The notes under the pieces are model-generated. The model was not told the origin of the DNA. It did no database searches and worked only from the letters and a program-made list of their open reading frames with translations. Source: Escherichia phage vB-Eco-KMB39. From it: a DNA stretch of 64,000 nucleotides. Shown here one piece after another: positions 63,161 through 63,943 of the stretch. Within the stretch, counting starts at the first letter, position 1. Every line of letters starts with the position of its first letter. The stretch lies in the sequence record OR539219.1. One strand, written 5' to 3'. Both the position numbers and the translations under genes were made by a program.

Positions 63161-63943
63161 ATGGCAGTAGTAGGAATTCCTGGTTGGATTGGGACTTCAG
63201 CCGTCGCTGAAACAGGCCAACGTTGGATGACAGCAGCTTCTAGAGAATTACGTCTAGGGAACCCATCTTGGATGTCCCAATTCGCGGGCCGCTCAAGAGA
63301 AATTATTCATACACTTGGAGCAGACCATAACTTCAATGGTCAATGGTTCCGAGATAGATGTTTTGAGGCAGGTGGTGCACCTATAGTGTTTAATATCACT
63401 GGAGATTTAGTATCATATTCTAGAGACGTTCCTTTATTCTTCATGTACGGAGATACACCGAATGAATATGTTCAATTGAATATACACGGCGTAACGATGT
63501 ATGGTCGCGGCGGGAATGGTTGGGCTGCTGGAGCGATTGGAGCGTCTGACGGTGGTGTATGTATCCAAAATGATATAGGTGGACGCCTACGAATTAATAA
63601 TGGGGGAGCTATTGCTGGAGGCGGCGGCGGTGGCGGTGGATATTCGCAAGCCAATAACTGGGCAGGAAAATATGTATGTGGAGGCGGCGGTGGTCGTCCA
63701 TTTGGTTTAGGCGGAAATAATGGTGCTCGATGGCCTGGTGGAAATGCTAGCTTAACAGCACCTGGTGCTGGTGGTAATACTGGCCAATATTGGGCTGGCG
63801 GTGGAGGTGAAGTTGGTCAACCAGGTCAATATGCTAATCCAGGTAATGGTTATTCAACACCTCCGACAAATCCTGGTGCTGCTGTAGCAGGATCGGCTCC
63901 AACATGGCAAAACGTTGGAGCTGTATACGGTTCAAGAGTATAA
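63161..63943 (+). CDS. 38: T2-type receptor-recognising adhesin gp38 with glycine-rich motifs
   Basis: 260 aa; [11 protein letters not shown]...; poly-Gly tracts ([21 protein letters not shown]) separating variable segments. Confidence 0.85.

Follow-up and report, generated by a model that had tools for sequence, protein, structure and literature searches.

An adhesin-type gp38 encoded by a chimeric gene 38, with a PP01-type receptor-binding domain, in Escherichia phage vB-Eco-KMB39

In the T-even phages the name of gene 38 does not by itself reveal the function of its product. The gene of T4 (552 nt, 183 aa) is annotated as encoding a tail fibre assembly protein that is unrelated to the adhesin of the T2 subfamily. 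Which of these two proteins is encoded by the gene 38 found in a window of 64,000 nucleotides from Escherichia phage vB-Eco-KMB39 (record OR539219.1), and which host receptor it may recognize, are the questions considered here. An earlier note on this DNA had proposed an adhesin whose specificity resides in variable loops and whose glycine tracts are prone to slippage or recombination. The best explanation for the evidence as a whole, and one that is very probably correct, is that the gene belongs to a Tequatrovirus and that its product is a monomeric adhesin capping the long tail fibre. Such a gp38 is already known, as the protein has been deposited, the family has been curated, and for a domain 97% identical to that of the window protein both a crystal structure and a map of the receptor contacts are available. 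Only two points are slightly new, the precise position of a chimeric junction and a linked allele of loops D and E with a polar tip.

The open reading frame of 260 aa called at 63161-63943 (+) is real. All 260 residues of its product match WPJ71428.1, the "tail fibers protein" of Escherichia phage vB-Eco-KMB39, a Tequatrovirus whose source study dealt with phages infecting uropathogenic E. coli and did not identify their receptors (PMC11162368). Downstream, the holin gene t starts at 63976. The gene order 34-35-36-37-38-t, in which gp34 has 1289 aa, is shared with T2, PP01, and S16 and is the usual one for the long tail fibre genes of T-even phages. Glycine accounts for 61 of the 260 residues (23.5%) of gp38, as compared with 7.4-11.9% in the upstream proteins gp34 to gp37. 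Small plus-strand open reading frames inside gene 38 are by-products of the GGN codons and do not represent genes. Nor does an antisense frame of 60 aa (63472-63654, minus strand), as its proline-rich product (PPPPPPPP) mirrors the longest glycine tract, with GGN read as NCC. Matches to sigma-70 and terminator patterns within gene 38 are at chance level or fall inside the coding glycine tracts.

That the product is of the adhesin type is close to certain. The Pfam model GP38 (PF05268) matches aa 47-260 with 243.1 bits (E 3.9e-72) and Gp38_N (PF21721) matches aa 1-42 with 73.2 bits (E 1.7e-20), against a curated cut-off of 25 bits for either model. T2 gp38 matches the identical pair of models, whereas T4 gp38 matches no Pfam adhesin model. 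In direct comparison with T4 gp38 (NP_049864) no similarity was detectable, the best BLASTP alignment reaching only E = 19 over 26 residues. The alignment with the T4 chaperone type that would speak against an adhesin was therefore sought and not found, and the description in the earlier note of a smaller T4 protein acting as a chaperone agrees with the length and annotation of that protein. As a class name the designation "T2-type" is apt; as a statement of closeness it misleads, as overall identity is 53% to T2 gp38 and 49% to that of S16, as compared with 67% for T6, 71% for JS98, and 90% for PP01. Alignment with these five adhesins nevertheless brings out conserved glycine-rich motifs with variable segments between them.

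Structural comparison leads to the same assignment. Only two PDB entries match in sequence, PP01 gp38 (9V85, E 7e-137) and S16 gp38 (6F45_D, E 8e-52). An AlphaFold model built with a 103-sequence alignment has a pLDDT of 87, with low confidence in the first ~15 residues (a single-sequence model with a pLDDT of 31 was discarded), and exhibits the three-domain fold of attachment domain, β-helix, and polyglycine-II sandwich. In Foldseek it matches 9v85_C with a TM score of 0.96 and an rmsd of 0.7 Å, and 6f45_D with E 3e-22; the PDB chains matched at E <= 0.001 number three and come from 9V85 and 6F45 only. For the location of gp38 at the gp37 tip of the virion and for its requirement in adsorption, the literature on T2, T6, S16, and PP01 provides the precedent. 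It is extremely improbable that the protein instead serves as a non-structural assembly chaperone of the T4 type, with the tip of gp37 binding the receptor. With T4 gp38 it has in common the gene name and the position between genes 37 and t and nothing else; the sequences are unrelated, the T4 protein of 183 aa is not an adhesin, and the adhesin models that match the window protein and T2 gp38 never match that of T4. The partner protein argues against this alternative as well. When the C-terminal 289 residues of gp37 are compared with solved structures, the S16 gp37 tip is the sole match, and a Peptidase_S74 chaperone domain is present in gp37.

Further examination of gp37 helps to place the adhesin within the fibre. 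The Peptidase_S74 match (PF13884) spans aa 984-1039, and the sole PDB match of the C terminus is S16 gp37 in the gp37-gp38 complex (6F45_A, E 4.7e-31), where the SDIRCK of the window protein aligns with the SDRRIK region (SDxRxK motif). Gene 38 thus directly follows a gene 37 whose product ends in a chaperone domain and not in the receptor-binding needle of T4. By homology, folding of the gp37 trimer would be assisted by the chaperone domain at its own C terminus (aa 984-1089). This domain would later be removed, presumably by cleavage, so that the gp38 attachment domain (aa 1-42) could dock on the exposed gp37 tip, a role described for this domain in PMC3157838 and PMC12032242. The coordinates of these and the other features discussed here are collected in Table 1.

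Table 1. Features of gene 38 and its surroundings, in positions of the 64,000-nucleotide window
Feature	Position	Strand	Details
Gene 38, adhesin-type gp38 (receptor-recognizing protein)	63161..63943	+	260 aa and stop; ATG-to-TAA open reading frame
Shine-Dalgarno sequence GGAGG	63151..63155	+	5 nt before gene 38 ATG; conserved in relatives
gp38 N-terminal attachment domain, predicted to dock on gp37 tip; JS98-like allele	63161..63286	+	aa 1-42, PF21721
Recombination junction, linker between attachment domain and β-helix	63302..63319	+	codons 48-53, IIHTLG
Receptor-binding domain, β-helix and polyglycine-II sandwich; PP01/CAM-21-type allele	63299..63940	+	aa 47-260, PF05268
JS98-like module: gp37 tip, chaperone domain, hairpin, gp38 attachment domain	62350..63301	+	by identity in 60-nt windows
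Loop A (WAAGAI)	63521..63538	+	identical to PP01
Gly8 tract, end of glycine-rich motif 2	63617..63640	+	aa 153-160
Loop B	63647..63676	+	identical to PP01; K170 and Y171 correspond to PP01 K168 and Y169
Gly5 tract, glycine-rich motif 3	63680..63694	+	aa 174-178, GGGGGRPFG
Loop C (NNGARW)	63716..63733	+	identical to PP01
Loop D (NTGQYW)	63776..63793	+	NTGTGYY in PP01: T207Q, G208 lost, Y210W
Gly4 tract, last glycine-rich motif	63797..63808	+	aa 213-216
Loop E (NPGNGYS)	63836..63856	+	tip Asn229 (AAT) at the position of PP01 Ala228
Gene 37, distal long tail fibre subunit, partner carrying gp38	59861..63130	+	1089 aa; Pfam Gp34_trimer and Peptidase_S74
gp37 C-terminal intramolecular chaperone domain, presumably cleaved off	62810..63127	+	aa 984-1089, begins SDIRCK
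TATAAATA late-promoter motif, probable start of 36-37-38 late transcript	59165..59172	+	upstream of gene 36
Intercistronic hairpin GGGCC-UUCG-GGCCC, genes 37/38	63136..63149	+	fold -12.3 kcal/mol

The adhesin gene is probably transcribed together with that of its partner. The late-promoter motif TATAAATA precedes genes 34 (54098-54105, just upstream of that gene) and 36, and none is found directly upstream of gene 38, which points to a single late transcript spanning genes 36, 37, and 38; the motif occurs 18 times in the window, as compared with about 9 occurrences expected by chance. Between genes 37 and 38 lies a hairpin that by its energy folds no more stably than shuffled sequence does (z = -0.47). 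The case for it rests instead on conservation with compensatory changes, as the letters of the stem vary while pairing is kept in CAM-21, PP01, T2, JS98, T4, and S16 (GGGGC/GCCCC in CAM-21 and PP01; GAGGGC/GCCCUC in T2; a CUCG loop in JS98; GAGCC-UACG-GGCUC in S16). It resembles the intercistronic hairpins of the C(UUCG)G type that were described in T4 long ago. Elsewhere in the cluster, the product of gene 35 (58018-59133; gp35, 371 aa) receives a domain label that is unexpected in a tail fibre hinge protein: aa 58-126 score 35.9 bits (cut-off 27; E 1.1e-8) on ILEI (PF15711), the Pfam model named "Interleukin-like EMT inducer".

Comparison with related phages shows that gene 38 is a natural chimera: the gp37 tip and the attachment domain of gp38 are JS98-like, whereas the receptor-binding domain that follows is of the PP01/CAM-21 type. 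Residues 1-71 of gp38 are identical to those of the Dhakavirus JS98, with nucleotide identity of 90-93% in 60-nt windows over 63161-63280, and the likeness extends upstream through the C terminus of gp37. Over this JS98-like module, identity to JS98 is 87-100% in most 60-nt windows and falls to 67-83% near 62681-62800, 63101-63160, and 63251-63310, whereas the corresponding values for CAM-21 and PP01 are mostly 42-88%; megablast matches to the module come mostly from JS98-, Bp7-, VR5-, and VR26-like phages. The module was inherited together. Beyond it the relationship is reversed, as 63311-63943 has 98-100% nucleotide identity to the O157 phage CAM-21 and only 33-85% to JS98. In the DNA alignment, sequence upstream of the junction sides with JS98 and bov9_1 against CAM-21 and PP01, and the position of the junction coincides with the boundary between the two Pfam domains, outside the glycine tracts.

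The relatives of gp38 can accordingly be described module by module. The closest, gp38 of vb_EcoM_bov9_1 (QNR52723.1), differs by a single residue (G72S) at 98.9% nucleotide identity and has the same chimeric structure, although the flanking gp37 is only 67-100% identical in 60-nt windows. From codon 49 onward, gp38 of CAM-21 (WAK44117.1), like that of KMB42, G157lw, and Ec_O157kw, is 98-100% identical in nucleotide sequence and again differs by G72S alone, with loops A-E identical to those of the window protein; these modules are preceded, in contrast, by a PP01-like attachment domain (54% identity, 2 residues shorter) and a different gp37 C terminus. Likewise, PP01 gp38 is 97% identical over aa 49-260, with loops A-C identical and the fold superposable at 0.7 Å, whereas its attachment domain (aa 1-48) is only 56% identical. 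T6 gp38 has a similar N-terminal and β-helix region, but its variable loops, like those of JS98, are unrelated; the receptor of T6 is Tsx. More distant still are T2 and S16, the latter supplying the solved gp37-gp38 complex (6F45). These share with the window protein the family, the domain order, the pattern of glycine-rich motifs, and the position after gene 37, but all of their loops differ and overall identity is low.

Chimeras of this kind are constrained by the fit between the two fibre proteins. Subtypes of the gp38 N terminus are always paired with matching subtypes of the gp37 C terminus in a lock-and-key fashion (Trojet 2011), and PP01 gp38 fails on T2 gp37 unless it is given the T2 N terminus. 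Members of the 90% cluster combine the PP01-type receptor-binding domain with no fewer than three types of attachment domain, and both haplotypes of loops D and E occur with each of the three, which shows repeated exchange at the junction between attachment and receptor-binding domains. Gene 37 is itself a patchwork over 61600-62350. Positions 61751-61930 are 98-100% identical to PP01; 62021-62110 agree with bov9_1 (97-98% identity) and little with PP01, CAM-21, and JS98 (32-43%); and 62141-62260 are again 93-98% identical to CAM-21 and PP01.

Another issue raised by this locus is whether the glycine tracts are a source of variation in their own right. The three glycine-rich strings quoted in the earlier note are present, GGGGGGGGY at aa 153-161 and the others at aa 174-185 and 202-216. 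Their placement at about 63600-63700 holds for the first two runs and not for the third, and their description as runs of GGN codons is true but uninformative, as every glycine codon is GGN. The family is defined by conserved glycine-rich motifs in fixed order with hypervariable segments between them (PMC3157838), and this is the arrangement seen in an alignment of 118 gp38 sequences, comprising the window protein and 117 near-full-length representatives of 90%-identity clusters, where conserved glycine blocks at aa 113-120, 130-160, 173-185, and 212-222 are separated by regions of high entropy. The proposal that the tracts are slippage-prone repeats, generating length variants and thereby host-range variation in the manner of a contingency locus, draws on a weak 6-nt array of 3.3 copies (GGCGGT, 63620-63639, score 33), the only one reported by Tandem Repeats Finder, and on short GGN-rich direct repeats between the tracts. 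It is nonetheless very unlikely to be correct. The lengths of the glycine-tract segments are identical in 116 of the 118 sequences, the two exceptions appearing truncated, and all indels fall in the variable segments. The codons of the longest tract are mixed (GGA GGC GGC GGC GGT GGC GGT GGA) and contain no homopolymeric triplet run. Constant length is also what would be expected of tracts that form a structural polyglycine-II core, and deletions of glycine-rich motifs in T6 were not recovered (PMC3157838). The claim of slippage is thus not supported by the evidence from length, structure, and mutation.

The companion claim, that the region is prone to recombination, fares better in part. It fits an old proposal that the glycine-rich motifs serve as recombination points (Tetart 1998, as cited in PMC3157838 and PMC12032242), but the exchange visible in this gene lies at codons 48-53. 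As a scan of IMG/VR provided 28 loci, too few for breakpoint statistics at the glycine-rich motifs, islands of exact identity of at least 14 nt between gene 38 and 21 divergent alleles were used instead. Within the specificity domain these islands fall almost entirely in the Gly8 tract (up to 21 nt), which is the main one, the Gly5 tract (18 nt), and a conserved C-terminal motif (up to 20 nt), in agreement with the published view of these motifs as exchange points. Far longer islands (up to 60 nt) occur in the N-terminal half, where the exchange in gene 38 is located.

With the domain assigned to the PP01 type, the loops themselves can be compared, using the loop definitions of PP01 (PMC12892980) mapped onto the window. 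The earlier claim that specificity should reside in the variable loops of gp38 is borne out for the 97%-identical domain of PP01, where the receptor contacts have been mapped to these loops (PMC12892980). The PP01 residues that have been functionally tested, Y159, K168, Y169, Y209, and Y230, are all conserved; the equivalent of Y159 is Y161, the essential Y209 is retained in loop D as Y210, and the cross-linked Y230 corresponds to Tyr231 of loop E. Loops and required residues (Y159, Y209, and Y230) are in this respect those of the PP01 type, but the hydrophobic tip of loop E, Ala228 in PP01, is replaced by Asn229. Outside the loops, the differences over aa 49-260 are G72S, A200S, and V255I.

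All of the loop differences from PP01 fall in loops D and E, which contact OmpC, at or next to sites that were cross-linked or selected. In PP01, G208 cross-links to OmpC but its deletion is tolerated, and A228V and A228L are tolerated whereas A228D and deletion of A228 abolished infectivity, from which hydrophobic contacts were inferred by the authors (PMC12892980). When PP01 was evolved for faster adsorption, all four lines converged on T207I. Across the PP01-type cluster the two loops are linked, Q-YW in loop D occurring with N or H at the tip of loop E and TGYY with A or S. The Asn tip is also found in O157 phages such as CAM-21, so that the need for a hydrophobic tip may be specific to the PP01 allele.

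Selection on the domain can be gauged from the same comparison. Between the window and PP01 (63305-63940, codons 49-260), dS is 0.45 and dN 0.019, a ratio of 0.04. With synonymous divergence so large and nonsynonymous divergence so small, the receptor-binding domain, "hypervariable" loops included, is evidently under purifying selection within its receptor class. Old though the divergence is, strong conservation within a single receptor class extends to the loops termed hypervariable.

Which receptor this conserved surface recognizes can be predicted from PP01, whose gp38 binds OmpC of E. coli O157 via loops D and E, with loop E entering the cleft between OmpC loops 5 and 7 (PMC12892980). Given a domain 97% identical to that of PP01, identical loops A-C, and retention of the tested residues, OmpC is the most likely receptor of the window gp38, a prediction made with reasonable if incomplete confidence. 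CAM-21, G157lw, and Ec_O157kw, all isolated on O157:H7, share this receptor-binding domain; a literature search on the receptor or gp38 of CAM-21 found nothing. In the mechanism proposed, the glycine-rich motifs build a rigid polyglycine-II sandwich core from whose distal face the five variable loops A-E project. Loop E would insert into the OmpC loop 5/7 cleft, held in place by loops B and D, and reversible binding to a porin, most likely OmpC, would set the host range.

Counting against OmpC is the position of the PP01 differences in precisely the OmpC-contacting loops D and E, including Asn229 at Ala228, and one substituted loop residue can be enough to change the porin recognized by a gp38 from OmpF to OmpW. 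An alternative that is rather unlikely, but that deserves consideration on these grounds, is that the loop D/E allele (NTGQ-YW with an Asn tip) recognizes a receptor other than that of PP01 or another range of OmpC variants, possible candidates being OmpC alleles without the O157 loop-7 GVIN insertion. The confinement of the loop changes to D and E, at or next to T207, G208, Y210, and A228, would be accounted for in this way, as would the joint variation of loop D and the loop E tip in the cluster, and KMB39 itself was isolated in a study of phages of uropathogenic E. coli and not of O157. Set against these points are the occurrence of an identical receptor-binding domain in several phages isolated on O157:H7, the conservation of loops A-C and of all residues essential in PP01, and the tolerance of PP01 for loss of G208. 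OmpC remains the preferred receptor. A further reading, less likely than not, is that the window encodes a natural sub-allele in its own right within the PP01 type of OmpC adhesin, in which loop D (NTGQ-YW) and a polar loop E tip (Asn or His) have changed together and which might bind OmpC somewhat differently or accept other OmpC variants than PP01 does. As it is carried by phages isolated on O157:H7, the Asn allele is compatible with infection of O157; as single loop changes can switch porin specificity in the gp38 family, it may also mark a different range of OmpC variants.

The gp38 of this window adds nothing new in kind, and its practical value lies in annotation and in the prediction of OmpC as primary receptor. 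The polar tip of loop E offers a cheap and testable check on the published model of PP01 binding to OmpC. Should the distinct sub-allele be real, it could explain why phages isolated on O157 and phages isolated on uropathogenic E. coli both carry it, and the hydrophobic loop E contact inferred for PP01 would not be general. Gene 38 also illustrates clearly how, in nature, a receptor-binding domain has passed from one fibre type to another at a domain linker. Adhesins of the gp38 family are the principal means by which T2/T6-like phages switch host range, and they are targeted when phages are engineered for therapy.
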